Positions 37,180-64,000 of a DNA stretch of 64,000 nt are shown piece by piece (position 1 is the first letter of the stretch; every line of letters begins with the position of its first letter). Below the pieces are notes generated by a model, which worked only from the letters and a program-made list of their open reading frames with translations, was not told the DNA's origin and made no database searches. The position numbers and the translations under genes were made by a program. The stretch lies in assembly GCA_043823195.1 (NCBI GenBank), contig JBDRAZ010000038.1:3592-67591 (forward strand), read 5' to 3'. Origin of the DNA: an archaeon. GTDB taxonomy: Archaea; Nanobdellota; Nanobdellia; Woesearchaeales; JBDRAZ01.

Positions 37180-37240
37180 ACTATTTCACTCCTTTTTTCC
37201 AACCTAAAACCGCTGCTTGAAATATTTAAATGTTTCCCTT

Positions 37241-43172: not shown

Positions 43173-46550
<3,378 letters not shown>

Positions 46551-48257: not shown

Positions 48258-48405
48258 TTTGTTCCTCCAGAATGCACGGGCCGTTATCTGGCCTAAACTA
48301 AATAATAATAACAGAAGCAATCTTGTTTTGCATCGCCTGATTCATGTCTGGGTAAGGTTGAGAGGATGTTTATAAATCTTTTGCTGATGGGCCGGATTGT
48401 GCCTG

Positions 48406-49473
48406 CTATTTTCTCTCAATACCCAGTATGCTCAGGAAAAATGAGGAAAAGATTGTCTGCATTCCGATGATAAGCACTGTGAGATTTGTTATTGTGAGCG
48501 TGAATCCGGAAACCAGCAAGCCGGTAAGCAGAATCAGGCTTCCAATTATTATCCCTTTCTCGACAGAGATGTGCTTGTTAAGGAGGTCAATCCAGGGGTC
48601 ATGTTCACCCAGGTGAACAGAGGCATATGTTTTGGCAAATATTCCCAGCAAAAGAATCTGGTAGCCGCCGATTGCCGACAGGCTGAATATGAACGGGACA
48701 GGCAAATGCAGCAACCCATCAGACAGTGTGCTGTAGAGCAGCAATGAAAAAGCCAGGACAAGCAGCAGAAATCCCGGAATGATAAACAGATAATCCGGCG
48801 AGTACAGCAGCATAAACCTCAGGTGCTTCCAGCCATCCCGGAAGGAGTCCAGCTTTGACTCCCCAACACGGGGATAATATGATATCGGCACCTCGCATAC
48901 CCGCAGGTCTGCCTTTACTGCCTTAATTATCATCTCTGTTGCAAATTCCATCCCGGTTGTGTTCAGCTTAAGCCTGGCAAGCGCCTCTGCCTTGATTGCG
49001 CGCATGCCTGAGTGAACATCGCTCAGCCGTGATCCGAAGAGCAGGTTGGTTATGCCGGACAGGAGGGGATTTCCCAGATACCTATGCAGGAACAGCATTG
49101 CGCCTTTCTTGATATCGCCCTTCAGACGCGTGCCAACAACAAGATCACAGCCCTTTATGGCTTTAAGGAATTTTGGAATTTCATTAAAATCGTATGTATT
49201 GTCAGCATCCCCGTACAGAATGACGGTGCCCTTTGCGTGCCTGAACCCCTCCAGAAGCGCATTGCCATAGCCCTTGGTGTGCCTGACGACGGTTGCCCCA
49301 AGCTTACGCGCAATCCCTGCGGAATCATCATGCGATGAATCGGAGATAATTATCTCCCCGTTTATCTTCTCCCTGGCAAGCACTCCCTGTATCTTCTTTA
49401 TGCAAAGTCCTACAGTGGCCTCTTCATCCCTGCAGGGAAGTATGACTGAGAGGTACGGATTCATGAGGAACAT
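48406..49473 (-). CDS. GT2 glycosyltransferase, dolichyl/polyprenyl-phosphate sugar synthase-like, with C-terminal TM domain
   Basis: LSVILPCRDEEATV plus YGDADNTYD (DxD) identify a GT2 fold. The C-terminal third is hydrophobic. The gene is the last in the radical SAM array operon. Confidence 0.7.
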   Translation of the reverse strand: MFLMNPYLSVILPCRDEEATVGLCIKKIQGVLAREKINGEIIISDSSHDDSAGIARKLGATVVRHTKGYGNALLEGFRHAKGTVILYGDADNTYDFNEIPKFLKAIKGCDLVVGTRLKGDIKKGAMLFLHRYLGNPLLSGITNLLFGSRLSDVHSGMRAIKAEALARLKLNTTGMEFATEMIIKAVKADLRVCEVPISYYPRVGESKLDSFRDGWKHLRFMLLYSPDYLFIIPGFLLLVLAFSLLLYSTLSDGLLHLPVPFIFSLSAIGGYQILLLGIFAKTYASVHLGEHDPWIDLLNKHISVEKGIIIGSLILLTGLLVSGFTLTITNLTVLIIGMQTIFSSFFLSILGIERK

Positions 49474-49491
49474 CCTAGATGCAGAATCTAT

Positions 49492-50481
49492 TTAAATCCT
49501 TTCATCATGACGGCGCCTGTTGAAGATATCAACGAACTCAGGCAGGCAGTGCCGGCACTCGGGATAAAAATGCCCGGATTCAAGGCGTTTTCTAAAGGCC
49601 TGCATCCGCTCACCCACCCATAATTCCCTAAACGGCCTATCCCGGATATTTCCAATGACGTTTTCGTACATGCTTGCAAGTATGCAGCATGCAAGAACAT
49701 CGCCCCTTGAATTGACAAAGGCCATGTCCCCCGGGGCATAGCAGAATTCCGGAACATCATGCTCAAAGAGGCCGTGCCTGACCAGGGAGCCGATGTTGGA
49801 CGCTATTTTTTGCTCAGCCATTGATTTTTGTGCCTCAAGAAGGCACCTGCTGATTTCAGTCTCGGGCAGTCCCCGTAAGGAGAGCTGCCTGTTGGTTGAC
49901 CATTCCAGGAGCACCGAGAAATAGACAGATGATATGCCTGCGCGCCTTGCAATGCCTGCATAGCCTGCCAGGCTGGCCAGGTTTACCCTGGTGACCACGG
50001 CGCCAAGCCTGATAACGGGCTTTTCACTGGCCTGCCTTCTTTTCTCTTCAGAAAGGCTCTTAATTGCCGCATACACCATCCGAAAGACCCCTTTGCCGCG
50101 AATCCCGTCATTGTCTGCCTCGGTTGTGCCATCCAGCGAAAAACAGATGTCATCCAGCTGAATATCAACAACCGCTTTAATCAGGGAGCTGTCAAGCATC
50201 GTTGCGTTGCTTGTAAGTGAGGTGAAAAGGCCGAGGTCTTTGGACTTCCGAATAATCTCCAGGATGTCCTTTTTCATGAAGGGTTCACCGCCGCCGGTGA
50301 GGTCTGCTGATTTTACACCCATTGATCTGGCATCTTCCAGAAGGCTGAATATTTCTTCTTTTGTCAGCTCCTCACCCGCTTTCGCGTTGGGGTCGGTCTT
50401 CTTTTCCAGCCTCCAGCAGGTTTTGCATCTAAGATTACATGCATCTGTAGGGCTGATCATAAGCTTGTCAGGGCCCTTCAT
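49492..50481 (-). CDS. radical SAM/SPASM enzyme, array member A
   Basis: ISPTDACNLRCKTCW (CxxxCxxC) and LTGGGEPF are present. C-terminal ACCILAS...CRHC. Overlaps the start of B by 4 nt. Confidence 0.8.
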   Translation of the reverse strand: MKGPDKLMISPTDACNLRCKTCWRLEKKTDPNAKAGEELTKEEIFSLLEDARSMGVKSADLTGGGEPFMKKDILEIIRKSKDLGLFTSLTSNATMLDSSLIKAVVDIQLDDICFSLDGTTEADNDGIRGKGVFRMVYAAIKSLSEEKRRQASEKPVIRLGAVVTRVNLASLAGYAGIARRAGISSVYFSVLLEWSTNRQLSLRGLPETEISRCLLEAQKSMAEQKIASNIGSLVRHGLFEHDVPEFCYAPGDMAFVNSRGDVLACCILASMYENVIGNIRDRPFRELWVGERMQAFRKRLESGHFYPECRHCLPEFVDIFNRRRHDERI

Positions 50482-51548
50482 TTTTCAAGCTCCTTGCGAA
50501 TTTCAAGATTGTTTGTAACCAGTGTTGTGCAGCATTTCCTGCAGTAGTCGGACAGGCTGCTGTCAAGCATATCCTGCCTGCGTTTCTGAAAATACGGGCC
50601 GTACCAGATCTGTTCCAGGGTTCTATTCCTGATGTTCTCGGTGGCTGCCTCATCAAAGAAGCCGCATGGCCCGACCCTGCCATCCACCCTTATGCCCATC
50701 CTGTAGAACGGCTCAAAACAGGGCATGTTAACAAAGCCGGCCCTGCCTGTTGAAAGCACCTCTTTCATGCTGCCTGTTTTTTCAACAAGCCTTGTTTCAA
50801 AGAACCTGCGCAGATTTGTGGTGATTGCATATTTATCCGCGAGGCCCGCCGCTTTTGTGGCAATCCGGGTGAATTCATGCTGCTGAACGGGATTCAGCCT
50901 CAATGCCTCACCCGCTTCAGAATATGAAGTGACCGGCTCGATAAAGACTGCATCCGCACCTATATTCTTGGCCAGACTTATTATCTCAGGAACCTGCCCA
51001 TAGTTGCGGTTAACCAGGACAACACCAATCTCCAGATACGGTTTGCCGGATTTCTGCCTGCGGCTGCTGAAATGCCTGATGTTCTCAACAGCCCTCCTGA
51101 ATGACCCATTGACACCGGTCAGATAGTCATTGGTCTTGCCATCAGCCCCGTGGAGGCTGACCTTAATATGATCCCACCCCAATCCGACAAGGTCCTCAAT
51201 CTGTTTGTGCGTGAAGTTTGTGCCATTGGTGCAGAGGTAGCCCTGCATGCCGCGGGCTTTGACAAGCTTCATAATCCCCATAGTGTCTCGACGGACAGTC
51301 GCTTCACCGCCCCCGATCACCTTGAACTCCCCAACACCCAGTTTCGCGGCATCTTCGATTATTTCCTTGTATTTGCCCAAAGGCAGCTCTTCGAGATAAT
51401 CAATATTATCGGCACCCACCCTCCAGCAAAATCTGCATCGGTGGTTGCACCTGAGCGTAGGCGCTATCTCAATCCCCCAGGGAGGGGCACTATGACCCCC
51501 GGCCCAGGTCCTGAGGCGCCGGATTACCTCGTTCATGCCCGCCCCCAT
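50478..51548 (-). CDS. radical SAM/SPASM enzyme, array member B
   Basis: IEIAPTLRCNHRCRFCW. C-terminal PCFEPFY...GPCGFFD...IWYGPYF...YCRKCC. Confidence 0.8.
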   Translation of the reverse strand: MGAGMNEVIRRLRTWAGGHSAPPWGIEIAPTLRCNHRCRFCWRVGADNIDYLEELPLGKYKEIIEDAAKLGVGEFKVIGGGEATVRRDTMGIMKLVKARGMQGYLCTNGTNFTHKQIEDLVGLGWDHIKVSLHGADGKTNDYLTGVNGSFRRAVENIRHFSSRRQKSGKPYLEIGVVLVNRNYGQVPEIISLAKNIGADAVFIEPVTSYSEAGEALRLNPVQQHEFTRIATKAAGLADKYAITTNLRRFFETRLVEKTGSMKEVLSTGRAGFVNMPCFEPFYRMGIRVDGRVGPCGFFDEAATENIRNRTLEQIWYGPYFQKRRQDMLDSSLSDYCRKCCTTLVTNNLEIRKELEK

Positions 51549-52693
51549 ATGCGGTGCAGCGCCCGGCCAACACCAAAGGCGGCCACTGACTGCCCCAATT
51601 CAGCAACCTGATGGAATCTTCCTTTCGAGAGAAGAACCCTGAGACGCCTGTTCTCGTCCTGAATCCAGAGGCTGCACTTTGCACAGTCCGAATGCTTCCG
51701 GTTTTGTGATATCTGCAGCCTCATTTTGCTGAAGTACGGACCATACCAGATATCCTTAAGGCTTTTGGCCAGGATGTTGTCGGCATCAGGGTCGTAGATG
51801 TTGCAGCAGGGCTGCACAGATCCGTCCGGCCTCACAACCATTTTATGCCAAGGCTGGTAGCAGTAGTAATCCGAAAACCCGTGCGCCTGCCTGTCCGGAC
51901 CTGTCTCGATGTTTTCAGGATCATGTCTTCCTGAAGAGGGTCTTGCTGATGCATGCCGTGATAGGAAGCTGACATTTGTCGTTATCCTCTGATGATGCGC
52001 TGCCACAATGGCGGCATCTATCTCTTCGGGAAGCCTGTCTTTGTCGTCATCGTCGAGGGCCAACCTGCCTGTGTTTGGGTTAGCCACCAGCGGCTCAAAG
52101 TTCACCGAATCAGCGCCGTACTTTGCCCCCAGCAGTATCATTTCAGCAAGCTTGCTGCAGTTGTGCCTGTTCACTACCGTGTTTATTCCCAATGCGGGAC
52201 GTTTCCACCTAGGGTACCGGCAGAGTTTCAGGAGCGCTGAGCAGATTCTATCATAGGATCCCTGCACACCGCAGAGGTAATCATGCGTTCTGCTGTCGGG
52301 ACCTTCCAGTGATATGAATACGGCATCCCATCTGATACCGACCAAGCCGGGAACCATCCCTGACAGCAGCGTGCCATTGGTCGTTAGCTGGCCCCTCAGC
52401 CCCCTTTTTTTTATGTGCTGCATGAGGGGCAGGATTGCCTCCTTTCTGCAAAGGGGTTCTCCGTCACCTGACAGGTGAACCTGCCGCACGCCCATATCAG
52501 CCGCATCATCAATAATCTGCAGGCAGCGTCCGGTTGTGAGCTGGTCTTTGCCCTCCCTTGTAGTCCCCCGGAGGCTACCTTCGCAGAATTTGCATTCAAG
52601 GTTGCAGCGGTATGTGGGATTCAGGTCAAGAGCGACCGGACCGGCAGGGGTGCCGTTTTTCCATTTCCCAAGCCTGGTTACCTTGTGATACAT
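51533..52693 (-). CDS. radical SAM/SPASM enzyme, array member C
   Basis: LDLNPTYRCNLECKFCE. C-terminal YCYQPWH...QPCCNIYD...IWYGPYF...CAKCS. Start at internal MYHKV. Confidence 0.8.
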   Translation of the reverse strand: MYHKVTRLGKWKNGTPAGPVALDLNPTYRCNLECKFCEGSLRGTTREGKDQLTTGRCLQIIDDAADMGVRQVHLSGDGEPLCRKEAILPLMQHIKKRGLRGQLTTNGTLLSGMVPGLVGIRWDAVFISLEGPDSRTHDYLCGVQGSYDRICSALLKLCRYPRWKRPALGINTVVNRHNCSKLAEMILLGAKYGADSVNFEPLVANPNTGRLALDDDDKDRLPEEIDAAIVAAHHQRITTNVSFLSRHASARPSSGRHDPENIETGPDRQAHGFSDYYCYQPWHKMVVRPDGSVQPCCNIYDPDADNILAKSLKDIWYGPYFSKMRLQISQNRKHSDCAKCSLWIQDENRRLRVLLSKGRFHQVAELGQSVAAFGVGRALHRIWGRA

Positions 52694-53757
52694 AGCGATA
52701 ACTCCTTCTGTATGCCCTGGTTCTGGATTACCTGGCCTGCGTTGCAGATCCTGCAATAGTGCGGCAGGCTTCCGCCCATAATGCTTTGCCGGATGCTGCT
52801 GAAATGTGAGCCATACCAGATGGACCTGAGAGACTCGTTTTTGACATTCAGCTTTGGGTCGTCACAGATGCAGCAGGGCCCGGCATTCCCGTCAACCTTG
52901 ACTACAAGATGGTACCAGGGCTCGTAGCAGGGGATTGAGAGGAAGCCGCGCCCCCTGCAGGCCAATACCTCATCCATTCTGTTGCTGTTCTCGATGTGCT
53001 GTTTTGCGAGATGGCTGACATTTGTCGCTATCCCGTATCTGGCTGCCAGCCTGTGGGCTTCGTCCTGATGGGCAGAGACGCCTGTAATGTCGTCGCGCAA
53101 CTTCAGTTCATTGCCAATCTCTGAGTGGACGGTCAGGGGCTCAAAGCTTACAATCTCGCACCCAACTGAATGCGCAAACTCTATCATCTGCGAGAGCTTT
53201 CCGTAATTAACATTGGAAAGGACAGTATTGAATGCAACAACCGGGAATCTGGTTTTATTTGCTTTTTTAGCCTGGTCCAGGAGCTTCAGGCTGCGCTCAA
53301 CCTTGCGGAAAGTGCCGGTTCCCCGCAGGAAATCATTCGTTGCAGCATCCGGTCCGTCTATGCTAAAGGTAACCTTGTCCCACCTGATCCCAACAAGAGC
53401 AGATATGAGCTTTTCTGTAAAGAGCGTGCCATTTGTTGTCATAGAGCCATTCATGCCATGTTCCTTTATGCGCTTCAATAATGCCGGGGTGGCCCGCCGC
53501 ATGAGTGGCTCGCCGCCGCCGGTAATCTCCCAGTGCACTGCCCCCAGATCCTTCCCCTCATCAATAAGCTCAAGGAGCCTCTTGTCGCTCAGCTGATAGT
53601 GCCTGCTGTCAAGCCTGCCCTCAAACCGCTCATTCCTCTGCCAGCAGCTTTTGCACCTGAGGTTGCAGTAATCTGTGGGGCTGAGGTCTATTATGTACGG
53701 GGGTGCAAGTGTCCCCTTTGCGCATGATACCAGCCTATTGATTATTTCTGACTGCAT
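52678..53757 (-). CDS. radical SAM/SPASM enzyme, array member D
   Basis: IDLSPTDYCNLRCKSCW. C-terminal PCYEPWY...GPCCICDD...IWYGSHF...YCRICN. Confidence 0.8.
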   Translation of the reverse strand: MQSEIINRLVSCAKGTLAPPYIIDLSPTDYCNLRCKSCWQRNERFEGRLDSRHYQLSDKRLLELIDEGKDLGAVHWEITGGGEPLMRRATPALLKRIKEHGMNGSMTTNGTLFTEKLISALVGIRWDKVTFSIDGPDAATNDFLRGTGTFRKVERSLKLLDQAKKANKTRFPVVAFNTVLSNVNYGKLSQMIEFAHSVGCEIVSFEPLTVHSEIGNELKLRDDITGVSAHQDEAHRLAARYGIATNVSHLAKQHIENSNRMDEVLACRGRGFLSIPCYEPWYHLVVKVDGNAGPCCICDDPKLNVKNESLRSIWYGSHFSSIRQSIMGGSLPHYCRICNAGQVIQNQGIQKELSLCITR

Positions 53758-54838
53758 TTCTCAGCATACCCCTGATCTGCCTGTTGGACGCAACTGTCCC
53801 GGGATTGCACTGCCTGCAATAATCCAGCAATTCGCCCCTCAATAGCCGCTCCCGTACAAGGTTAAAGTGCCTGCCCTGCCAGATATCGGCCAATGATTTG
53901 TCATGAACATACTCGCCGCTTTCATCAAACATGCAGCACGGTCCGGCGCGCCCGTTTGGCCTTATAACCATGTTATGGAAAGGCTCATAGCAGGCCGCCG
54001 ACAGCAGGCCGCCCCCATCCTGCTGCTTGAGATCCCCCTCTATGACCTTGTCCATTTCATTGGTCTTGTCCACAACTTCGCAGCTGAGGTCTGCCAGGTT
54101 GTATTCCAGCCCCAGCCTGTCGCAGAGCGCAGCTGCTTTTGGCCTGAGCCTCTGAAACTCCGCCTGCTCATCTTTTGTCATCTTAAGGCGCTTGCCCAAA
54201 TCAGTAAACACCGAGACATTGACGATCGGCTCAAAGAATATGTTTGCCGCACCGATGGTGTGGGCAAGCTGCACCATCTCCACTATCTGTGCGTGGTTCC
54301 TGTTGCACACCACATAGTGTATGCATATCTTGGGAACTGCCATGCCGGACCTGCCCTTGAGCAGGGAAAACTGCCTGATTGCGCCAACGGTCTTGTCAAA
54401 GCAGCCCCGGTCGTTCCTGAGGTACTCGTGCGTCTCCCTGTCAGGAGAATCCAGGCTGAAGATGACCTCATCCCATCCTGATTCAATCATGGCCACGGCA
54501 TCGGTCTCCTGCAGGAGTGTGCCGTTGGTAATCAGTGTGCCACGCATTCCATGGCCCTTTATCTGCCGCATAATCTTAAGGAATGCCTCTTTGCGGCACA
54601 ACGGCTCACCCCCTCCGGTAACTGTAACCTCTTTAACCCCCATATCCGCCGCCTCATCGATAATGGCTGCGTACCTCTGGTCTGAAATCTCATTATCATA
54701 GCTGACCCTCTCGGTATCCTGCTGCCAGCAGAACCTGCAGTGAAGGTTGCACCGTTCAGTGGGATTGATCTGCAGCCTGACAGGTCCGGGCCTGGATCCC
54801 GGCCATCCTGCAAGGCGTTCAACTGTTGCATTCATCAT
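53735..54838 (-). CDS. radical SAM/SPASM enzyme, array member E
   Basis: VERLAGWPG...LQINPTERCNLHCRFCW. C-terminal ACYEPFH...GPCCMFDE...IWQGRHF...YCRQCN. Start at internal MMNATVERLAGW. Confidence 0.8.
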   Translation of the reverse strand: MMNATVERLAGWPGSRPGPVRLQINPTERCNLHCRFCWQQDTERVSYDNEISDQRYAAIIDEAADMGVKEVTVTGGGEPLCRKEAFLKIMRQIKGHGMRGTLITNGTLLQETDAVAMIESGWDEVIFSLDSPDRETHEYLRNDRGCFDKTVGAIRQFSLLKGRSGMAVPKICIHYVVCNRNHAQIVEMVQLAHTIGAANIFFEPIVNVSVFTDLGKRLKMTKDEQAEFQRLRPKAAALCDRLGLEYNLADLSCEVVDKTNEMDKVIEGDLKQQDGGGLLSAACYEPFHNMVIRPNGRAGPCCMFDESGEYVHDKSLADIWQGRHFNLVRERLLRGELLDYCRQCNPGTVASNRQIRGMLRNAVRNNQ

Positions 54839-56459
54839 GATTACTGCTGCACCCCCCAATGTAATTCCTGATATCCCTTTTCCTGTCAAAGATTGAATAA
54901 AGGTAAAAGATCCTGTAAAAGTGATTATGCGTGTTGTCAAATTGTGGATTAAACACCTGTTTTCTCATTTGCTCATATTGTCTGAAGGCGAGCCAGGCCT
55001 GTTGTTTCTTATCCTCCCATTTGGCGCCGTCCACTTCATCAAAGGCCAGACCCTCCGCCTGATCATCCTGCGTCTCTCTTATCTTTGTTATTCCATACTT
55101 TAAAGGATTGCTTGTGAGAAGGCTCTGAGTAAGATAGAACCTAGTGAGATAGAAGTAATCAATTTGCCTGCGGTTCTCAGCAAGGAATTGCATTGACAAG
55201 TCCCTGTCTTCTTGAGTCTCATGCGGCAGCCCGCAAACCATTTCCAGCTCGTTCCAGATATTAAGTTTATGAGAATGTTTCAGCAGGGCCGATGCCTGAG
55301 CCAGATTGACATTCTTGTTCAGGTATTTTTGCATTCGGGGAGATGCACATTCCAGACCGAATAGCAGCCTCCGTGCACCAGCAACGTATAGCTTTGACAA
55401 TATGGACTTATCCATTGAATTGAAGGCTGCGCAGTCGAACCACTGCACATTTACATCATTTTTAATCATCTGATCTGAAAACTCGGCCGCATAATTTTTT
55501 GTTGGGTTAACACTGGTATTGGTGAATATGAAATGATTGGCCCCATGCTTTTTTGACAGCATCTTCAGTTCTTCTGCAACGGCACCAGGATCCTTTGTGA
55601 GAAAAATATCTGACTGCGAATCTTTGCAGAATATGCATCTGTTTGGACATCCGAAGACAAAGTAATAGGGAAGGATCTGAATCTTCTTTGTTGACAACCC
55701 ATTCTCAGCAACATCCGTTGGTATGTACCGATAGAGTTCCAATGGAAGCCCGTCAAAATCCGGTACGGGGAATATAACTTCATCAGTATAGTATTCCGTC
55801 GGTATTTTCCGTGATTGAAGTACAGGATAGCCTGCCAAATCAAGGTGCCTGGCAATTTTTTCTTCGTTAAATACTATGCTAGGGAACAATTCCCTCTTTG
55901 ACAACTGCCTTGACTCGATGCAGTCAAGAAGCCTTATGAACTCGAAATGGTTAGTCAGGAAACAAAAGAAATCCACAAACGGCACGTCTTCAAACGGCAC
56001 ACCGGCAATAGTCCTATCATGATGGCCTCCGCCTGCGGAGATCAGAACATCATCGCGGTCTTTTAGTATTTTTGACATAACCATTGCCGCCCCGATTGAT
56101 GCAAATTTCCAGCAGTGCCCAAAGGAAAAAGCGACCATGTCATACCCCTTCGTTTTTGTCTTCTTAAGCATCTTTTCCGCATTCTGCTCCAGCTCGTCAT
56201 CACTGCCCCGCGTTATATAATCCGCTATTCTCGCCTTATCCTGAAACAGGGCCATGTCCACGCGCCTGTTATCAAGGCCGTGCAAATTATCATGGTACAC
56301 CTTCGCGTCGAGGTCATCCTGGTGTGCTGTGAAACCATGCTTCTCAAGGTATGACTTGATGACCGGGAGACTGATGAGCGGAAATTTTGGCGGCTCACGG
56401 GTGCTGTTTTCATCCTCAGCCGAATAGAATTCGGGAGAGTATATCAGTTTCAGCCTCAT
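54819..56459 (-). CDS. cobalamin-binding (class B) radical SAM enzyme, paralog 1
   Basis: N-terminal Rossmann-like B12-binding-type domain PLISLPVIKSYLEKHGF...ISAGGGHH. Central radical SAM motif YYFVFGCPNRCIFCKD. Start at MRLKLIYSPEF. Confidence 0.65.
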   Translation of the reverse strand: MRLKLIYSPEFYSAEDENSTREPPKFPLISLPVIKSYLEKHGFTAHQDDLDAKVYHDNLHGLDNRRVDMALFQDKARIADYITRGSDDELEQNAEKMLKKTKTKGYDMVAFSFGHCWKFASIGAAMVMSKILKDRDDVLISAGGGHHDRTIAGVPFEDVPFVDFFCFLTNHFEFIRLLDCIESRQLSKRELFPSIVFNEEKIARHLDLAGYPVLQSRKIPTEYYTDEVIFPVPDFDGLPLELYRYIPTDVAENGLSTKKIQILPYYFVFGCPNRCIFCKDSQSDIFLTKDPGAVAEELKMLSKKHGANHFIFTNTSVNPTKNYAAEFSDQMIKNDVNVQWFDCAAFNSMDKSILSKLYVAGARRLLFGLECASPRMQKYLNKNVNLAQASALLKHSHKLNIWNELEMVCGLPHETQEDRDLSMQFLAENRRQIDYFYLTRFYLTQSLLTSNPLKYGITKIRETQDDQAEGLAFDEVDGAKWEDKKQQAWLAFRQYEQMRKQVFNPQFDNTHNHFYRIFYLYSIFDRKRDIRNYIGGCSSNHDECNS

Positions 56460-56466
56460 TGGCAGA

Positions 56467-58053
56467 TCATAACCCCCATCCGTTTGCGGAAACATAATCC
56501 ATTATCTCGGATTTTGAGTCAAAAACAGTGTACAGATAAAAAAGCTTGTAAAAATGCATCGCAGATAAATCAAGGCCGGGGCTGATAACATCCCGCCTGA
56601 GCTGTTCATAGGTGCGATATGAGGCATCCTGCTGCATTTTCTTATCCTTCCATTTGAGGCCGTCAATCTCGTCAAAGGCCATGCCCTCGCCGTTTCCGGC
56701 GGGCCTTATGTTGGCAATTCCGTATCTGGCGGGATTCTGAAGCATCCTGCTGCCGGTGAGGTAAAATTTGGTCAGATAAAAAAAATTTATGGTCTGCTTG
56801 TTTCGCCTCAGGAAATCCAGCGAGGCTTTCAGGTCGCTGTCCTTTTCATGGGGCAGCCCGCAGATAACCTCAATCTCATTCCATATGCCGAGTTTGTGCG
56901 CCGCCGTCAGAACGGCCTGCGCATCAGGCAGGACAACGTTTTTCTCCAGGAATCCCTGCATTGCAGGGGATGCGCATTCCAGCCCGTAAACGAGGCGGCG
57001 CGCACCGGACTGGTGCAGTTTCGATAGCAGTTTTGCATCCAGATTATTGAATGTTGCGCAGTCAAACCAAAGCAGATCAAGGTTCTTGCGGATTATTGTG
57101 TCGGCAAAGTCAAGAGCGTGCCTGTATGTTGGATTAATGGAGGTATTGGAGAAGACAAAGCATCTTGTCCTGTACTTTCTGGAAAGGTATGTGAGGTCAT
57201 CTGCAACCTGCTCCGGGTCCTTGACAAAGAAGTGGTTTATGTGGGAGTCCTTGCAGAAAATGCATTTGTTCGGACAGCCATAAATGTGAAAGTAGGGCAG
57301 GACCAGAAGTTTTTTTTGGGAGATCCCGTTGTCAAGGATATCCTGCGGGACGTACCGGTAGAGGTCAAGAGGCAGCCCGTCAAAATCGGGCACGGGAAAA
57401 AGGACCTCCGGATCCTTATGCGTGGCTGGGTAGCCTTTTATTGTCTCCTTTTGATCCGGGGAAAATTCCCGGTTGAATATTATTTCTGAGCAAAGCTCCT
57501 TTTTTGGCATCCTGCCGTCCAGATAAAGGAGCAGCTTGCAGAACTCGTAGTGGTTTGTGAAGCAGATTATGTCGAAACATCCAGTCTTGGCTATCGGGAC
57601 GCCCGCTATCGATTCCTTAAAGAGAGCCCCGCCCAGGATAATGGGGATATCATATTTCTCCCTTATTATCCCTGACATGACAATTGCGGCGCCAAGGGGG
57701 GCCAGTGTCCAGCAACTGATCGGCGCACATGCGAAGATGTCATAGCCCTTCCAGTCAGTGAGGGAGAGTATACGCAACGCATGCTCTTCAAGCTGCTCAT
57801 CATTCCCGGTCCTTATGTAGCCGGCAATCCTGGCGGGATCGTCAAAAAGGCTCATGTCAACCGGATGCCCGGATTGCTTGCTGGAGTTGAACACCTTTAT
57901 GTCAAGGTCATCCTGCGAAACCTTAAACCCGTACTTCTCCAGAAAGGATTTTATGACCGGAAGACTGACCAGCGGCAGCCTCGCTGGCTCTTTAGGATAC
58001 CCTTCCTTTTTGTCTGTGCAGAATTCCGGCAGGTAGCAGATCTTAACCTTCAT
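56467..58053 (-). CDS. cobalamin-binding (class B) radical SAM enzyme, paralog 2
   Basis: Alignable to paralog 1 throughout (LPLVSLPVIKSFLEKYGF, PYFHIYGCPNKCIFCKD). Start at MKVKICYLPEF. Confidence 0.65.
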   Translation of the reverse strand: MKVKICYLPEFCTDKKEGYPKEPARLPLVSLPVIKSFLEKYGFKVSQDDLDIKVFNSSKQSGHPVDMSLFDDPARIAGYIRTGNDEQLEEHALRILSLTDWKGYDIFACAPISCWTLAPLGAAIVMSGIIREKYDIPIILGGALFKESIAGVPIAKTGCFDIICFTNHYEFCKLLLYLDGRMPKKELCSEIIFNREFSPDQKETIKGYPATHKDPEVLFPVPDFDGLPLDLYRYVPQDILDNGISQKKLLVLPYFHIYGCPNKCIFCKDSHINHFFVKDPEQVADDLTYLSRKYRTRCFVFSNTSINPTYRHALDFADTIIRKNLDLLWFDCATFNNLDAKLLSKLHQSGARRLVYGLECASPAMQGFLEKNVVLPDAQAVLTAAHKLGIWNEIEVICGLPHEKDSDLKASLDFLRRNKQTINFFYLTKFYLTGSRMLQNPARYGIANIRPAGNGEGMAFDEIDGLKWKDKKMQQDASYRTYEQLRRDVISPGLDLSAMHFYKLFYLYTVFDSKSEIMDYVSANGWGL

Positions 58054-59716
58054 AAGGATCGTCCCCCGGATGGCCCGGCAACGTTGATTTCCTGTATATT
58101 TCAACTGTTGCATCAGCCACATTAACGGCTGATATTTTTGTGAACAGATGCCGCTCTTTGTTAAATGCCTGGTGCATGAGCAGCATGGACTCCTCTTTAT
58201 CAGAATTGGCACTGCCGGGATTGACAGAATCCTGTATCAATACTATCTCAGCATCAGCTGCCATATCGGCGTATGCCTGATAATCCAGGATGCATGCACC
58301 GAGCCCGCATTGCCCGTAAGGCTCATGCATCCTGACAGTAAGGTTTCGCAAGGCAAATTCATCCCCTGCCCCGGTCCCAACATAATACTGCCACTGAGAC
58401 AGATGGTATATGCCTGAATCCAGGAACAGGCAGATATCGATCCCGAGATTTTCCAGGCCCCCCATGGCCTCTGCCAGGTAAGGGCTCACCTGGTCTGAGA
58501 CCACATTGGGATTGCTCCTGAACAATCCGTATGCCTCCCTATCGTGACAGGTCACTATAACACCTGCGAAAGGGTCAGAAACATGGTATGATGCCCAATA
58601 AACCTGGCCCAGGCCAACGGCAATAACGAGCAGAATGGCCGACTTCCTGAATTGTGGTTTCCTAATGTGCTGGATCATCAATGAGACCAGTACGGCAAAG
58701 GAAGGCAGGTAAGGAACAACGAATCTGGGACTCATCAGACCCGAGGCAGTTGACACCACAGTGAATATGAAGAACGATGACGTAAACCACAGATGGATCA
58801 GCATATACTTTCTGCGGAAAAGGAAAAACAGGCTCATCATCGACATAACAAAAAAGAGAGGGCCCAGCTGGCAGCAGAACATATGGTAAAGATAATCCGA
58901 AGAGACACGCAGCCAGGAGATAACCAGAGACTGGCCCCCGGCGCCGATCTCTGGCCCGTCCCTTTGCCCGCTGAATATCTCGATCCTGGCGGCTACAGTC
59001 ATAATGTGTGAAGGATACCAGAGAGAAGCCAGCAGCGCCATTATCAATGCGGCGAACGCCAGGTTTATCATTCGTTCACGCAAACGGCACATTCCCCTGT
59101 GTCCGGTGATGCGGGTGCATAGGAGAGAATAGAGCGCCGGCCCAATGATGAATAAGCCAAAACTCCACTTTGTCAGCAGACCGAGACCGCAGACGATTCC
59201 AAAAAAGGCAGAGTATTTGCGGTCAGAAAATCCCCGGGTTCTCAGCAGAACGCCGATGGACAGGGCCACCATTGCGGTTAATGCAAATTCGATCATGTAC
59301 AGCCTTGAGAATCCGATTATGGAATTGAATGCAGTCACGAGGAATGCCGCCAGCAATCCTGTTGCCCTGTCACGCAGCTGGAAACCGATGGAATATATGC
59401 CAAAGACCAGTACAAAAAGAAAGATTGCATTTGTCATGACCGCGACATCTTCACTGACACCGAAGAGCGCAAACATAACCTGGGTCGCGTAATACAGCAG
59501 GGGCGGATACTCAGTCAGATGGGCCGGGTACGGCTGCTGATCCGGCATATGATTAAACAGGAATGCACTGGCATAAAAATTACCCATCATGTCGCCGCAC
59601 AGCTCAGTTTTGTCATGCTCAAGAATGTAGTAGTTGTGCATGGCGTTAAATAGGACAATAAGCAGCAGTGCCAGAAGGGTCAGCCTCCGGCTATTGAGTA
59701 TGTTGTTTCCATGCAT
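58043..59716 (-). CDS. polytopic membrane glycosyltransferase, GT39/GT83-like (PMT_2 / ArnT-like, lipid-linked sugar donor dependent)
   Basis: Twelve or more TM helices. N-terminal YPPLLYYATQVMFALFG resembles the PMT_2 family. There is a large C-terminal soluble region. Confidence 0.55.
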   Translation of the reverse strand: MHGNNILNSRRLTLLALLLIVLFNAMHNYYILEHDKTELCGDMMGNFYASAFLFNHMPDQQPYPAHLTEYPPLLYYATQVMFALFGVSEDVAVMTNAIFLFVLVFGIYSIGFQLRDRATGLLAAFLVTAFNSIIGFSRLYMIEFALTAMVALSIGVLLRTRGFSDRKYSAFFGIVCGLGLLTKWSFGLFIIGPALYSLLCTRITGHRGMCRLRERMINLAFAALIMALLASLWYPSHIMTVAARIEIFSGQRDGPEIGAGGQSLVISWLRVSSDYLYHMFCCQLGPLFFVMSMMSLFFLFRRKYMLIHLWFTSSFFIFTVVSTASGLMSPRFVVPYLPSFAVLVSLMIQHIRKPQFRKSAILLVIAVGLGQVYWASYHVSDPFAGVIVTCHDREAYGLFRSNPNVVSDQVSPYLAEAMGGLENLGIDICLFLDSGIYHLSQWQYYVGTGAGDEFALRNLTVRMHEPYGQCGLGACILDYQAYADMAADAEIVLIQDSVNPGSANSDKEESMLLMHQAFNKERHLFTKISAVNVADATVEIYRKSTLPGHPGDDPYEG

Positions 59717-59736
59717 ATGATGCTCTTGGATCCGGC

Positions 59737-60816
59737 TTACAGATTGTCCTGCAACCGATGCATAATGGCATCTCTCAGTTTCTGGTTTTCGACAAATTCA
59801 TTTGCACCGCAGTTCCTGCAGTACTCAGGGAGCTTATGGTCGATGAGACGCTTCCGCGTATTGTTGTAGTAATCCCCGTACCAGATATCGCCAAGGGACT
59901 GCGTATGCAAAGAGGTGCCCTCATCGCCGAAAAGCCGGCAGCTGCCCACGATCCCGTTGGCCCTGACCGTGACCAGGTACCATGGCTCAAAACAGTGGGT
60001 TCCCAGGAAGCCATCCTGCCTGGCGCCCATGAGGTCCGTCATCTGGCTTAGCTCATTTGATTTGTCCATGAGCATGGCGTCCTGGTATTCCCCAAGGTTC
60101 GTGCGGATGCCGTACCTCATGCACTGTTTTATGTACTTCCTGACAAGCCCTGCAAACTCCTTTCTTTTTTCCTCATCCAGCGCCCACTTTTTTTCCTCAT
60201 TGTCATAGAGGATTATGGTCTGCACGTTGAGCAGGCAGCCGCCAAGCTCATGAAGAAGCCCGATGATTTCAGAGAACTGCGCATAATTGACGCTGTTTAT
60301 CACCGTATTGAAACCGATTTCCGGTCTGACGGCCCCCAGCCGGCCTTTCCATTTTTTTATCAGCCCAAGGGATCTGACTGCACGGTCAAATGCCCCGGGA
60401 AGCTGCACAATGTAATCGTGTGTGCCTGCAACCGGGCCATTGATGCTGACCCTGATTCTGTCCCAGCCCGCCTGCACCAGGCTTTCTGCCGCGGATTCAG
60501 TAAACAGTGTGCCGTTCGTGATAATGTCGCCCTCCATTCCAAGCCGCTTGATTCTTTCCATGACCCTGACCGCAGCATCACCGCGGATCATGGGCTCGCC
60601 GCCGCCGGACAGGAGCCAGTCCCTTACCCCCAGTTCTGCGGCCTCATCCACAAGATCAAGGAGGCGCTGATCGCTCAGCTCGTTTTTAAGGTCAACCCAG
60701 CCTTTCCGCTCATGGCTTCTCTGCCAGCAGAACCTGCATCTGAGGTTGCACCTGTTTGAGGTATCGAGGTGAATGCTTGACGGCCCGGGCCTATCACCAT
60801 GATGCCAGTCCAGCAT
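59737..60816 (-). CDS. radical SAM/SPASM enzyme, array member F
   Basis: IHLDTSNRCNLRCRFCW. C-terminal HCFEPWY...GSCRLFGD...IWYGDYY...YCRNCG. Start at internal MLDWHH. Confidence 0.8.
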   Translation of the reverse strand: MLDWHHGDRPGPSSIHLDTSNRCNLRCRFCWQRSHERKGWVDLKNELSDQRLLDLVDEAAELGVRDWLLSGGGEPMIRGDAAVRVMERIKRLGMEGDIITNGTLFTESAAESLVQAGWDRIRVSINGPVAGTHDYIVQLPGAFDRAVRSLGLIKKWKGRLGAVRPEIGFNTVINSVNYAQFSEIIGLLHELGGCLLNVQTIILYDNEEKKWALDEEKRKEFAGLVRKYIKQCMRYGIRTNLGEYQDAMLMDKSNELSQMTDLMGARQDGFLGTHCFEPWYLVTVRANGIVGSCRLFGDEGTSLHTQSLGDIWYGDYYNNTRKRLIDHKLPEYCRNCGANEFVENQKLRDAIMHRLQDNL

Positions 60817-60836
60817 CCGTTTCACTCTTTCTTCCA

Positions 60837-61928
60837 TCATCTTGCGCATCCCTTCAGTCCCTCTCTTAGCTCTCTCGTGGCCGATAGGGTCCAGGGATTG
60901 CACCGGGAACAGTCATCGGTTAATTTCCGGTCTGCAATTTCCTGACGTTTTCTGGTGAAATAATTGCCGTGCCAGACCTCGGCAAGGGACCTGCAGGCGA
61001 CTGAATCGCCTTTTTCCTGAAGCAGGAAACAGGGCTGGGCAGAGCCGTCTGCAAAAATCGAAATGTTATACCAGGGATGGAAACAGGGAATTGACCAGAA
61101 CTCCTGTGCCTGAAGATTGCCGGTGTCTGATATGAAGGTATCCTGCATTCTATTGGCGCTCTGGAAGAGGTCTGAATCAAGGAACATGGGAATGTTTGTG
61201 GAGACCTGGAGTTCCTCTGCTGCCGCCTGCGCTTTCTTCAGGTGAGCATATAAGCCCGGGACCTGCCGTGGGCCGAGCGCCAGTTTTTTTATCTTGCCCG
61301 ACCAGATGTTCATCGCATTGATAAGCACTTCATTGCAGCCGGTCTTAGAGGCAAATGTTATCAGATCCTCAATGTGATCATGGTTCCTGTTGCAGATGAC
61401 CGCATGGATGCATATTTGCGGCCGGTCCCTGCCCAGGGATTTCTTTGCCTCTGCGAGGCACGCTATGCCGTGCTTTACCCGCCTAAAGGTTCCCGGAACT
61501 CCTCTGAGGCTGTCGTGCGTCTGTTCGTCAGATGAGTCCAGGCTAATCGTGATCTTGTTCCAGCCGGCATCGACCAGCTGCATGGCCGTGTCCCTTGATA
61601 TAAAGGTCCCGTTTGTGATGCACTCACCTAAAAGCCCTGCCTTTTTGATATGCCCCATGATCTGAAGGGCATCGGGACGGAAGAGGGGCTCGCCGCCGCC
61701 GCAGATATGCCATTCCCTAACCCCCATTCCGGCACTTTCATCGATGAGAGACAGCCACCGCTCCAGAGGCAGCTCGTTTTCCCTTTTCAGGTCCTCTTCC
61801 CTGACAAGCGTCCTGGTAGGGCAGAACAGGCAGCTCAGGTTGCAGAAATTGGTTAGGTGAACCTGGATCTGAGTAGGCGATTGAGCTATGCCACCCCCCC
61901 ATCCGGCCAGCCTGGCCACACGTTCATC
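60837..61928 (-). CDS. radical SAM/SPASM enzyme, array member G
   Basis: VARLAGWGG...IQVHLTNFCNLSCLFCP. C-terminal PCFHPWY...QPCFLLQE...VWHGNYF...DCSRCN. Start at internal MDERVARLAGW. Confidence 0.8.
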   Translation of the reverse strand, partial: DERVARLAGWGGGIAQSPTQIQVHLTNFCNLSCLFCPTRTLVREEDLKRENELPLERWLSLIDESAGMGVREWHICGGGEPLFRPDALQIMGHIKKAGLLGECITNGTFISRDTAMQLVDAGWNKITISLDSSDEQTHDSLRGVPGTFRRVKHGIACLAEAKKSLGRDRPQICIHAVICNRNHDHIEDLITFASKTGCNEVLINAMNIWSGKIKKLALGPRQVPGLYAHLKKAQAAAEELQVSTNIPMFLDSDLFQSANRMQDTFISDTGNLQAQEFWSIPCFHPWYNISIFADGSAQPCFLLQEKGDSVACRSLAEVWHGNYFTRKRQEIADRKLTDDCSRCNPWTLSATRELREGLKGCAR

Positions 61929-61980
61929 CATTATGACCACCGGAGAACAAAGAACATAATTTAAATGTTGCTGTGATTCA

Positions 61981-62760
61981 CTAATGCAGGTATATGTTAT
62001 CGATATGGACCACGTTTGATTCGGGGCCGGCCTCGAATGCAAACATTGCACGGTTAATATCATCGTAATCCTGTTTTCCGTTCCCTATCGGATGGCCTTC
62101 CACCGGATACATGTCTTTGAGCGGAACCGTGACCAAATACCACTTGTTGCCCTCCAGCAGCCTCATGTTAACAAACCACCAGAAGTCCCCAATGACAGAG
62201 TTCCTGTCCCTGTCTTCGATGACAAAGGCCAGCAGCCTGGTGTCCTTTTCAGCCATGAATAAAAATGAGACATAGCTAAACTGACTCCAATCATGGGTTC
62301 CCGGATAATTCAGCCTGGCTGTATGAAACCCTGCACCAGTCCCATGGGAATAGCTAATCCTCAGGTGCCTTCCGCAGATGCCGCCGGTATCAACCGATGC
62401 TTCCATCCTGCTGTCCTCCTTTTCAAGCAGATAGGCCCTGAGATCGCCTTCATAATCCTCGAACAGGTAACCCGGCCCTTCCGCATCGCATGAGCCTGCC
62501 TCAGCGACTGTGCCGATCTCATGATACTGGCTGTTGACAGAGGGATCCTGACCGCTGATTTCATCAGTGCCGGTCACCTCAAAAACGGCCGGCTGGTCCA
62601 GAACATCAATGCGCCTTGTTATTGCGCCGGTAATGTCACCGACAGCAGATGTCCTGTAGAAAAGTATTCCTGCAGCAGTCAGGTTAAGGACTATCAATAC
62701 AATAAGAATCCAACTCCGAAGTGTTAGTTTCATTCCCCCGATCGGGATATTTTGTGGCAT
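61981..62760 (-). CDS. membrane-anchored hypothetical protein with extracytoplasmic beta-rich domain; first gene of the array operon
   Basis: N-terminal TM helix LRSWILIVLIVLNLTAAGILFY. The remainder is polar and aromatic-rich, possibly a carbohydrate-binding-like beta-sandwich. Confidence 0.45.
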   Translation of the reverse strand: MPQNIPIGGMKLTLRSWILIVLIVLNLTAAGILFYRTSAVGDITGAITRRIDVLDQPAVFEVTGTDEISGQDPSVNSQYHEIGTVAEAGSCDAEGPGYLFEDYEGDLRAYLLEKEDSRMEASVDTGGICGRHLRISYSHGTGAGFHTARLNYPGTHDWSQFSYVSFLFMAEKDTRLLAFVIEDRDRNSVIGDFWWFVNMRLLEGNKWYLVTVPLKDMYPVEGHPIGNGKQDYDDINRAMFAFEAGPESNVVHIDNIYLH

Positions 62761-63028: not shown

Positions 63029-64000
63029 TTAGCCCAGCCCTTTAAGTATCACGCCTGCAAGATTCTCTGCAATAAGCCGGTTTCCTTCTGTTGTTGCATG
63101 GCCGAAAGTACCTGCAAAACGGTCTATAAACAAATCATCGTATGAACAGTTGATAAGGGCGCTGTTGAAATTTGCCTCGTTAGATACGAGCATAACATCC
63201 TCATCATCCAAGATGCGCCTTACCGGATCAACGCTCAAAGTAGGATACTGCATGGCCACGTACCTGATCCCGCGTTCATTAAGAATCTGGTGCAGCATCC
63301 GGTAATGGTATGCAGTGATGTTCTCTTTTGAATCCGTGCGAGGAACAACCAGAGACAGGCCATGATTATGCAGATAATCTTCTACCTCACCCGCTGAAAC
63401 GCCCTGATTAAGCATGATTTCAGCTGCGAGGTGGTGAAAATCAACACAGTTAGGTGCGTATTGCGTAAAATCCAGGGACCAGTTAGGCATATAGCCTGGA
63501 TTGCTCTCAAGGTCCTGAGTCCTTGCAAATTCATAATATGCATATCTGGCGGTATCATTAATATTTAGGGCGTTAGTGAGAATTCTCCGAGCAGATGAAA
63601 ACCGACCCTGATTAGCGTACTCGGCAGCAAGAGCAATATGAAAATCGTACAGCTGGTCTTTCATGCCCCTTGGCATGGACCAATTATCAGATGACAGACC
63701 CTCTTGCGCCGGACCATATAATGACCTGACAATCTTGTCATCTATTAAACATGCATCATTCCCGGGGCGGGGAGGACTGATAAAGGAATATGTTTTGCCC
63801 TCAGAGAACCTGTTTAACCAAGACAAGTACAACCACACCGCCAATTTGTAAAGCCTGAAATCCTGCATGGCTAACATGGAATTGGTTTTTAAACTGCCTT
63901 CATATTTCAGCAGAACATGGGTGCGGTCGTTTACACCCATCATTGATACAACCAAATCAGGCTTGAAAGCATCAAGATTATCCCTGATTTCCTGCAGCAC
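63029..64000 (-). CDS. hypothetical protein, possibly SGNH/GDSL-like hydrolase with TPR-like region; N-terminus beyond window end
   Basis: The ORF is open to the window end. DLVVSMMGVNDRT resembles an SGNH block. Confidence 0.3.
   Translation of the reverse strand: MLQEIRDNLDAFKPDLVVSMMGVNDRTHVLLKYEGSLKTNSMLAMQDFRLYKLAVWLYLSWLNRFSEGKTYSFISPPRPGNDACLIDDKIVRSLYGPAQEGLSSDNWSMPRGMKDQLYDFHIALAAEYANQGRFSSARRILTNALNINDTARYAYYEFARTQDLESNPGYMPNWSLDFTQYAPNCVDFHHLAAEIMLNQGVSAGEVEDYLHNHGLSLVVPRTDSKENITAYHYRMLHQILNERGIRYVAMQYPTLSVDPVRRILDDEDVMLVSNEANFNSALINCSYDDLFIDRFAGTFGHATTEGNRLIAENLAGVILKGLG

Follow-up and report, generated by a model that had tools for sequence, protein, structure and literature searches.

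What is known of radical S-adenosyl methionine (SAM) chemistry on sugars comes, to our knowledge, from single tailoring enzymes of antibiotic pathways. Here, we analyzed a 64-kb stretch of contig JBDRAZ010000038.1 of a Woesearchaeales archaeon (referred to below as the window), in which 12 intact, tightly packed minus-strand genes, recognized from the listing of open reading frames (ORFs) and Pfam, occupy positions 48406–62760. Their order (5' to 3') is a membrane-anchored protein resembling a carbohydrate-binding module (CBM), radical SAM paralogs G and F, a PMT_2-type glycosyltransferase (GT) of the polytopic GT-C class, a pair of class-B-like radical SAM proteins, radical SAM paralogs E, D, C, B, and A, and a family 2 glycosyltransferase (GT2). 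The component superfamilies and the general role, i.e., glycan tailoring, are known, while what is new is a conserved, ordered battery of 5–15 twitch-type radical SAM paralogs with class-B radical SAM enzymes and GT-C, GT2, and family 4 (GT4) glycosyltransferases.

Among the described enzymes, BtrN, the butirosin 2-deoxy-scyllo-inosamine dehydrogenase and founding twitch radical SAM enzyme, resembles paralogs A–G in having a radical SAM core followed by a short four-cysteine domain (C-x17/18-C...C-x2-C), and, like them, it has no recognition element (RRE) for ribosomally synthesized and post-translationally modified peptides (RiPPs); its substrate is a carbohydrate-like aminocyclitol. However, the likeness is detectable in the C-terminal domain only, and BtrN is outside the 50 top whole-fold matches. 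Moreover, BtrN (about 250 aa) is a single enzyme of an aminoglycoside pathway, whereas the window proteins (about 330–370 aa) belong to cassettes of 5–15 paralogs and are set apart by their N-terminal helix and middle region. The SPASM maturases (anSME, SuiB, SkfB, CteB, and PqqE) give Pfam matches and the best overall structure and sequence matches in PDB, but the family shares only 15–18% identity with them and is devoid of the CX2CX5CX3C motif, an RRE, a precursor peptide, and a sulfatase in cis. Radical chemistry on sugars within GT-rich clusters is carried out by DesII, BlsE, and AprD4 (and by class B methylases of the GenK type); the first two are among the top fold matches of paralog D and AprD4 is the top match of the class-B-like pair, yet the identity is 13–18%, and these are single tailoring enzymes for soluble antibiotics, for which no multi-paralog cassette with GT-C and GT2 is known. 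Related radical SAM enzymes performing successive steps on one scaffold have a precedent in AhbC/AhbD/NirJ (heme and heme d1) and ScmE/ScmF, which are among the better NCBIfam matches (60–95 bits at cut-offs of 400–650); those systems, however, comprise two or three paralogs compared with seven or more here, and no tetrapyrrole genes are located nearby.

The two GTs of the operon recall another set of systems. In lipid-linked glycosylation a GT2 makes the polyprenyl-phosphate sugar inside the cell and a GT-C uses it outside (GtrB with its GT-C, ArnC/ArnT, and Ppm1/PMT), and the Arn and Dpr systems alter the sugar chemically, while it is linked to the lipid, ahead of its transfer by the GT-C. 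As in these systems and in DprE1/2 with Emb/Aft, the window combines a polyprenyl-phosphate-type GT2 and a polytopic GT-C within one operon. It differs from them in that the tailoring capacity consists of nine radical SAM enzymes, not a deformylase or an oxidoreductase pair, and in that the window has no flippase gene.

The Radical_SAM domain (PF04055) was found above the cut-off in all nine radical SAM proteins, each with the CX3CX2C motif, and in all seven of A–G it is accompanied by a SPASM match above the Pfam gathering score (30–51 bits). A single family profile recovers exactly these seven members in the window (paralog C, for instance, scores 319 bits), which bears out the preliminary description of this DNA as far as their paralogy is concerned. 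The SAM-binding motif GGGEP is conserved among them. The family signatures proposed in that description exist but are looser than given there, since CxEP[WF] is present only in B, D, E, and F (with CYQPW in C, CFHPW in G, and CYAPG in A), and D lacks the W of RLxxW; paralog A is indeed short and without the N-terminal helix segment, as had been noted.

Only four C-terminal cysteines are invariant across the seven paralogs and 35 homologs (C277, C295, C335, and C338 in paralog D), and all seven share the spacing C-x17-C...C-x2-C. In paralog G they correspond to residues 327, 345, 385, and 388, with the CX3CX2C cysteines at C74/78/81, and in paralog F to residues 304, 322, 362, and 365, with the latter motif at 52/56/59. 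The CX2CX5CX3C motif of the second auxiliary cluster was not found in any of the seven. With the family profile, the C-terminal domain of BtrN is recovered (E = 7e-14, family positions 279–361), and in a pairwise alignment the four cysteines of paralog D fall on C169, C188, C232, and C235 of BtrN, which we take to be its auxiliary-cluster ligands. Because these four are the only invariant C-terminal cysteines and align with the BtrN ligands, the seven paralogs are assigned by sequence to the twitch type, with a single, fully Cys-ligated auxiliary [4Fe-4S] cluster predicted despite the Pfam SPASM score. Hence, the SPASM label used earlier holds for the Pfam match and not for the strict sense of seven cysteines and two auxiliary clusters, which we rejected.

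Structural comparison led to a similar picture of distant kinship. The AlphaFold2 model of paralog D (pLDDT 94) matches SuiB, SkfB, DesII, BlsE, CteB, anSME, MoaA, and PqqE at TM-scores of about 0.6 and 14–18% identity, no close solved structure being found, and in a profile search of PDB the top ranks go to SkfB and PqqE. An RRE domain was not found in the seven paralogs, since the model shows no more than a single short helix ahead of the first core strand; the cluster motif lies about 8–30 residues after the best-supported starts (15–52 in the longest ORFs). For none of the nine radical SAM proteins does any NCBIfam model reach its curated cut-off, so that the profile check against characterized families (e.g., anSME and Tes) suggested earlier assigned them to none; the best matches of the seven are generic (e.g., "tungsten cofactor oxidoreductase maturase", 84–121 bits at a cut-off of 380). 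As had been reported, no small ORF for a precursor peptide is present in the intergenic space of the operon, and no conserved one occurs in related loci of the F-E-D-B-A type; peptidase and RiPP exporter genes are likewise absent from the operon, and Pfam revealed no sulfatase in it.

The class-B-like copies 1 and 2 are 48% identical to each other. Pfam B12-binding (PF02310) gave no match in either window copy at E ≤ 0.01, and matches to it occur only in more distant homologs of the pair. The AlphaFold2 model of copy 1 (pLDDT 89) comprises an alpha/beta domain at the N-terminus and, after it, the radical SAM barrel (CX3CX2C at ORF residues C283/287/290), and Foldseek placed AprD4 first, then TsrM, MgmA, TokK, and OxsB. 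The best NCBIfam matches, i.e., ApyD, TIGR04072, HpnJ, and rSAM_ocin_1, are all far under their cut-offs. The modeled architecture is that of class B, cobalamin binding being only putative; AprD4 itself carries a cobalamin-type domain without cobalamin.

The window proteins were then compared with the ORFs of 62 fetched loci. Orthologs of A, B, D, E, F, and G score 354–509 bits, against about 130–270 bits for the second-best window paralog. For paralog F the best orthologs reach 509 (locus L005) and 478 bits (L001), with about 250 bits for the second-best window paralog. Orthologs of E (about 414 bits) are present in L008 and L005, that of B (454 bits) in L008, those of G (305–354 bits) in L025, L017, L022, L005, and L010, and those of A (326–372 bits) in L008, L009, L005, and L001, where A is always last in the array. 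Paralog C has few orthologs and groups only with split ORFs of L008. In a neighbor-joining tree, the clades of B (10 other loci, 91% bootstrap), E (nine other loci, 93%), and D (91%) contain no other window paralog, each gathering 9–10 other loci. Since the maximal clades of A, F, and G are recovered exactly in only 0–10% of replicates, with shifting peripheral members, the orthology of these three rests on the best-hit margins.

The gene order is conserved as well. The succession (G)-F-E-D-B-(A) recurs in L001, L004, L005, L010, L012, L015, and L018, and partially in L016 (F-D-B) and L009 (D-B-A); in the window, the GT-C and the class-B-like pair additionally separate F from E, and C separates D from B. 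Because orthologs elsewhere outscore the neighboring paralogs and the order is conserved, the lineage-specific tandem expansion proposed earlier is not upheld, and the phylogeny, in which window B, D, and E each group with other loci, gave no sign of the in-situ duplication that it had been expected to confirm; the search for synteny in other genomes, in contrast, was successful. As judged from these sequence comparisons, the cassette is conserved and its paralogs are ancient. Its members have presumably diverged in function, and each paralog probably has its own step, since the order G-F-E-D-(C)-B-A is kept across distant lineages.

A scan of GTDB genomes with a 17-sequence family alignment yielded 55 loci, whose hosts include many Aenigmatarchaeota, unclassified archaeal metagenome-assembled genomes (MAGs), an "uncultured Methanosarcinales" MAG, Thermodesulfobacteriota, and Syntrophomonadaceae, with more distant relatives in Omnitrophota and Planctomycetia. 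The cassette has moved between domains. In a search of 5.8 billion proteins, 199 of the 8,000 candidates scored were related to paralog D at E ≤ 1e-10, all named generically ("radical SAM" or "radical SAM/SPASM"), and among 1.84 billion cluster representatives 4,465 proteins matched the family profile at E ≤ 1e-30. Some Aenigmatarchaeota loci (L017 and L031) hold up to 15 family members.

Two further observations concern these arrays. A second array type (L017, L031, L021, and L022; Aenigmatarchaeota and unclassified archaeal MAGs) has up to 15 paralogs in the order A, D-like copies, and G, and carries a conserved small ORF of 67–94 aa encoding a coiled coil (...ISYRLGRWIAETRIGGWLKKVLRKYV; e.g., L007 20770–20973), which is absent from the window. 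In L008, from the closest related MAG, the C-type paralogs appear as split ORFs (265 + 126 aa and 266 + 128 aa), and the array also holds a GcpE/IspG gene (477 bits) and an arylsulfotransferase-like beta-propeller gene (7865–8911 and 17569–18753).

The neighborhoods of the family are dominated by sugar enzymes. Gene tables of four relatives revealed arrays of 4–13 family members among or beside GT2 and GT4 genes, accompanied by PMT_2 GT-Cs (up to three, in L005), DUF2079 proteins, GDSL-like hydrolases, a DegT aminotransferase, a GFO/IDH/MocA dehydrogenase, an asparagine-synthase-type amidotransferase, and B12-binding radical SAM proteins. A census of 87 flanking ORFs, located within 4 kb of family members in array loci with at least three of them, comprised GT4/GT1 (14), GT2 (6), PMT_2 (4), B12-binding proteins (3), GDSL (3), ABC ATPases (3), carbamoyltransferases (2), and DUF2079 (2). 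In eight of the 10 loci with D followed by B, a GT4 gene is found within about 2.5 kb after the F-E-D-B(A) core (F-D-B in L016). The MAG from which the closest orthologs come (L008 and L033) has GDSL-like genes and a 792-aa GT2 scattered among its arrays, and two PMT_2 genes there alternate with class-B radical SAM genes, which is the GT-C/class-B pairing of the window. PMT_2 relatives adjoin family arrays or class-B radical SAM genes in L005 (three copies), L033 (two), and L041 (two), the adjacency to a class-B gene recurring in L033 and L041.

The strongest evidence for an association with sugars is provided by natural fusions, in which the fused proteins score 340–366 bits against the family profile and 200–250 bits against the window paralogs along their whole length. 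The fusion partners of these family members comprise C-terminal GT4 domains (P0219, P0227, and P0223), class I SAM methyltransferase domains (P0262 and P0259), an alkaline-phosphatase-type domain (P0265), and tetratricopeptide (TPR) repeats (P0251, P0291, and P0294). P0227 is a genuine single gene, which on its 14.6-kb contig adjoins two B12-binding radical SAM genes, a GDSL gene, a carbamoyltransferase gene, and a GT4 gene. P0157 is a fusion of two family members, and several other representatives (e.g., P0158–P0160), in which the family profile is matched by two or three separate segments, may be additional tandem fusions.

Much larger proteins are encoded in Planctomycetia and Omnitrophota, where polypeptides of about 1,412–1,445 aa have three radical SAM plus twitch-like modules each and those of about 1,538–1,818 aa three to four B12-binding radical SAM modules each. 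Their loci (L041 6782–11119 and 13430–18046; L049 5271–10727; L045, L043, and L054) also encode PMT_2 GT-Cs, a GT2, four GT4s, a WecA/MraY-type transferase, and a Wzm/Wzt-like ABC-2 permease with its ATPase. We considered these polyproteins as Rosetta-stone members of the family and rejected this, as their modules reach only 70–100 bits against the window paralogs and end in C-x3-C; they are a distant parallel. The full-text literature searches found no description of the cassette; one preprint mentions radical SAM among the domains of giant, sugar-related Omnitrophota proteins but does not analyze it further. Together with the NCBIfam result, this agrees with the earlier statement that no described pathway corresponds to the operon.

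Regarding the GTs of the window themselves, the polytopic one has at least eight hydrophobic helices and matches Pfam PMT_2 (PF13231) with 43.6 bits at a cut-off of 26.1, and its sequence identifies it as a putative ArnT-like GT-C of this family. The GT2 has transmembrane helices at residues 228–352 (four, C-terminal) and gives NCBIfam matches to AglJ (TIGR04182, 139.5 bits; cut-off 325) and the Dol-P hexose transferase (NF041391, 117.9 bits; cut-off 375), so that on sequence grounds its GT2 family and AglJ-like architecture are supported, and the equivalog status of AglJ or the Dol-P hexose transferase is not. The CBM-like protein, named "carbohydrate binding domain-containing protein" by NCBI, has a transmembrane helix at residues 5–23 and a Pfam CBM_11 match (E = 5.9e-4, 20.4 bits) under the cut-off of 27. 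Its only relative in other loci is a weak one, an ORF just after the L018 array (28% identity over 107 aa); the 5.8-billion-protein search revealed no other, and a 260-aa ORF of L001, checked as a candidate homolog, did not match. It is probably an extracytoplasmic carbohydrate-binding accessory protein. The radical SAM proteins, by comparison, have no hydrophobic helices. Thus, the preliminary suggestion that the CBM-like protein could be their substrate found no support, the enzymes being soluble and this protein N-terminally anchored, probably extracellular, and with one weak relative in other loci.

Taken together, we consider it moderately probable that the operon tailors a lipid-linked sugar or oligosaccharide, or a glycoconjugate, for the cell surface by means of radical chemistry. 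The link to sugars is drawn because of the GT-rich neighbors, the fusions to GT4, and the lack of both an RRE and a precursor ORF, and a sugar or lipid-linked sugar had already been preferred over a classical RiPP in the preliminary description. In the mechanism that we propose, the GT2 would charge dolichyl phosphate with a hexose on the cytoplasmic side of the membrane or, alternatively, GT4s encoded elsewhere would build a lipid-linked oligosaccharide. The radical SAM enzymes, which are placed in the cytoplasm because they are soluble and need SAM and a reductant, would modify the lipid-linked or nucleotide-activated sugar, or the GT4-built oligosaccharide, before export. By analogy with BtrN, NeoN, DesII/AprD4, and BlsE, the twitch-type enzymes might abstract specific C-H hydrogens of the sugar, with oxidation to a keto sugar, epimerization, deoxygenation, or decarboxylation as possible outcomes and the auxiliary cluster relaying an electron. 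The class-B-like pair could add C-methyl groups or, if it works without cobalamin, catalyze an AprD4-like dehydration. After flipping, the GT-C would hand the modified sugar over to an acceptor outside the cell, possibly a glycan or a surface protein, and the CBM-like anchored protein may bind the resulting product.

Several points weigh against this proposal. The chemistry is derived by analogy and the substrate is a candidate only; nine radical enzymes probably exceed the needs of a single hexose, so the substrate may be an oligosaccharide, a polymer, or something else. The nearest solved structures include, beside the sugar enzymes, the RiPP maturases SuiB, SkfB, and CteB (TM-scores of about 0.6), and two of the best NCBIfam matches of the class-B-like pair, ApyD and rSAM_ocin_1, are RiPP enzymes, although far below the cut-offs. 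The TPR fusions might reflect interaction with protein partners. A GT2 and not the GT4 that usually follows the cassette is encoded in the window operon, a flippase gene is not present in the operon, the GT2 is under the cut-offs of both equivalogs, and the bacterial polyprotein loci are only distantly similar (70–100 bits per module).

A bolder version of the same idea, which we advance only tentatively, is that the G-F-E-D-B-A cassette, the class-B radical SAM enzymes, and the GT-C form an unrecognized biosynthetic machine of strict anaerobes, in which each paralog would carry out its own radical reaction on a lipid-linked glycan as this is being built. These reactions could be, e.g., C-C or ether cross-linking, multiple epimerizations, deoxygenations, or C-methylations, and the product may be a class of surface carbohydrates heavily modified by radical chemistry, without a characterized counterpart.

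Some of the points just listed would rather fit modification of a peptide or protein, i.e., cross-links, epimerizations, and C-methylations introduced, in a proteusin- or sactipeptide-like manner, into a ribosomal peptide or surface protein encoded elsewhere, with subsequent O-glycosylation by the GT2 and GT-C outside the cell. With anSME, the maturases SuiB, SkfB, and CteB are among the top structural matches, SkfB and PqqE lead the PDB profile search, the class-B-like pair is nearest in NCBIfam to ApyD and a RiPP C-methyltransferase subfamily, some family members are fused to TPR repeats, and the arrays of the second, Aenigmatarchaeota type include the conserved coiled-coil ORF of 67–94 aa. 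Furthermore, PMT-family GT-Cs mannosylate proteins. We nevertheless hold this to be unlikely in view of the missing RRE (a cluster motif some 8–30 residues from the N-terminus, with one short helix in the model ahead of the core), the lack of a small intergenic ORF in the operon and of a conserved one in the F-E-D-B-A-type loci, the absence of a peptidase and a RiPP exporter, the position of every NCBIfam RiPP-maturase model far under its cut-off, and the predominance of sugar enzymes among neighbors and fusions.

Lower still we place two other explanations. Remodeling of isoprenoid lipids, in the style of Tes, GrsA/B, or the tetraether (GDGT) methylases, would have the radical SAM enzymes act on unactivated C-H bonds, either in archaeal lipids or in the dolichol carrier, leading to cyclization, coupling, or methylation, with the GTs adding glycolipid head groups. 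It would account for the high number of enzymes as site-specific paralogs working on a long chain, and there are weak resemblances of paralog D to Tes (NCBIfam, 44.7 bits) and to GDGT-MAS 7TOL (37 bits, core only), and of the class-B-like pair to HpnJ and the "lipid biosynthesis B12-binding/radical SAM" model. The Tes score, however, is about ten-fold below the NF045702 cut-off of 450, lipid-synthesis genes were seen in none of the neighborhoods examined, and the fusion partners are GT4 and methyltransferase domains rather than prenyl enzymes. The family is commonest in Aenigmatarchaeota (DPANN), which generally lack lipid synthesis, and this counts against a lipid role, as does its presence in bacteria. 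We regard such a role as improbable.

Similarly doubtful is the production of a soluble glycoside, e.g., an aminoglycoside-like pseudo-oligosaccharide, in place of a surface glycoconjugate. The enzyme classes do fit aminoglycoside pathways, with BtrN-type twitch enzymes, AprD4-fold class-B-like proteins, and GT4s, and with the DegT aminotransferase, the GFO/IDH/MocA dehydrogenase, a FAD amine oxidase-like protein, and the carbamoyltransferases found near the arrays. Against this, the polyprenyl-phosphate-type GT2 and the GT-C of the window belong to enzymes working on lipid-linked sugars at the membrane, no 2-deoxy-scyllo-inosose synthase was found (the sole dehydroquinate-synthase homolog, in L005, lies in a shikimate operon), and bacterial relatives carry Wzm/Wzt- and WecA-type genes.

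The remaining candidates were rejected outright: prokaryotic viperin of pVip defense (viperin_w_prok 45–63 bits at a cut-off of 180, with PADLOC covering about 7–160 of 257 profile positions), anSME (only a distant PDB match, E of about 1e-12 in the core, not among the 25 best NCBIfam matches listed per protein, and no sulfatase in the operon), membership of the Tes/GDGT-MAS lipid enzymes (paralog D under the NF045702 cut-off, 44.7 versus 450), and membership of the RiPP maturases (no RRE and no precursor gene in cis).

The features of the operon were summarized in Table 1. Start codons were picked from the family-profile alignment and the NCBI protein lengths (M45 for paralog G). With these best-supported starts all 11 junctions are between a 23-nt overlap and a 49-nt gap, with ATGA overlaps at two or three of them (C/B and B/A included), and the genes are co-directional, which supports the single operon described earlier.

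Table 1. Genes of the radical SAM/glycosyltransferase operon and the adjoining upstream gene (window coordinates).
Feature	Position	Strand	Remarks
CBM-like protein, operon gene 1	61981..62760	-	One transmembrane helix and beta-rich CBM11-like domain
Radical SAM paralog G, twitch-type	60837..61931	-	Pfam Radical_SAM 70 bits, SPASM 30 bits
Radical SAM paralog F, twitch-type	59737..60849	-	Pfam Radical_SAM and SPASM
GT-C, PMT_2/ArnT-like, polytopic	58043..59716	-	Pfam PMT_2 43.6 bits
Class-B-like radical SAM, copy 2	56467..58053	-	Pfam Radical_SAM only; 528 aa from NCBI start
Class-B-like radical SAM, copy 1	54819..56459	-	Pfam Radical_SAM; AlphaFold2 model
Radical SAM paralog E, twitch-type	53735..54838	-	Pfam Radical_SAM and SPASM
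Radical SAM paralog D, twitch-type; reference member, modeled	52678..53757	-	100% identical to P0001 (generic radical SAM protein)
Radical SAM paralog C, twitch-type, most divergent	51533..52693	-	Pfam Radical_SAM and SPASM
Radical SAM paralog B, twitch-type	50478..51548	-	Pfam Radical_SAM and SPASM
Radical SAM paralog A, twitch-type, short form without N-terminal helix	49492..50481	-	Pfam Radical_SAM and SPASM
GT2, AglJ/Dpm1-like, last operon gene	48406..49473	-	Pfam Glycos_transf_2 67.5 bits
GDSL/SGNH-like gene upstream, cut by window end	63029..64000	-	Weak Pfam Lipase_GDSL, E = 3.6e-3

An artifact of assembly duplication was rejected because protein identities are low (22–28% to paralog A) and the DNA repeats within the operon are short (50–97 nt, 60–72% identity), being confined to motif-coding segments. 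The 3' boundary is set at 48406, since a TATA-like box (48365–48380) precedes the downstream gene of a citramalate/isopropylmalate-synthase type, which is followed by the genes of PEP synthase and glyceraldehyde-3-phosphate dehydrogenase (GAPDH). At the other end, a transposase remnant lies between the operon and the GDSL-like gene. The latter is possibly associated with the operon; it is weakly similar to the L004 copy (E = 5e-4), and GDSL-like genes recur next to family arrays in L004, L008, and L063. The remnant, a 59-aa ORF at 62833–63012 (minus strand) ending in ...FIMHYNTDRPHLSLNNKTPAEVWQELISV, resembles by eye the C-terminal part of an IS3/rve-type transposase and occupies the 268-nt gap between the GDSL-like gene and operon gene 1, which hints at past mobility of the operon.

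Elsewhere, the window encodes aEF-1alpha, aEF-2, and an archaeal A24 peptidase domain (Arc_PepC), which mark the DNA as archaeal, and Rfam and tRNA scans of the whole 64 kb gave no matches. A second small sugar/radical cluster is located at 34783–38602, with a GT4 gene (34783–36009, plus strand) beside two radical SAM genes (35939–36967 and 37241–38602, minus strand), which are outside the seven-paralog family (49 bits against its profile); another GT4 gene is present at 3754–4902. The GAPDH gene (43173–44167, minus strand) is split over two frames, with ORF 43442–44167 stopping in the C-terminal domain and the remainder (...WYDNEWGYSNRMIDV...) in another frame at 43173–43376, which may reflect a frameshift error of sequencing or assembly, or a pseudogene. 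The phosphoglycerate kinase ORF (40382–41995, minus strand) is unusually long (537 aa from TTG), with its PGK domain in two stretches, and a mis-called start or an insertion is possible. The region of about 6000–17642 has a low GC content (32–38%, compared with about 50% elsewhere), a tyrosine integrase gene at its edge (16371–17642), and genes for PD-(D/E)XK nuclease-like and M48 peptidase proteins, and is probably an integrated element.

The generic annotation "radical SAM/SPASM protein" hides a coherent pathway. The finding points to a battery of radical SAM enzymes wired into cell-surface glycan assembly, widespread among uncultured archaea (Aenigmatarchaeota above all) and found in several phyla of anaerobic bacteria. 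The cassette represents a defined, testable enzyme set for new C-H functionalization chemistry on carbohydrates, and it would help to explain how strict anaerobes, lacking oxygenases, diversify their surfaces.

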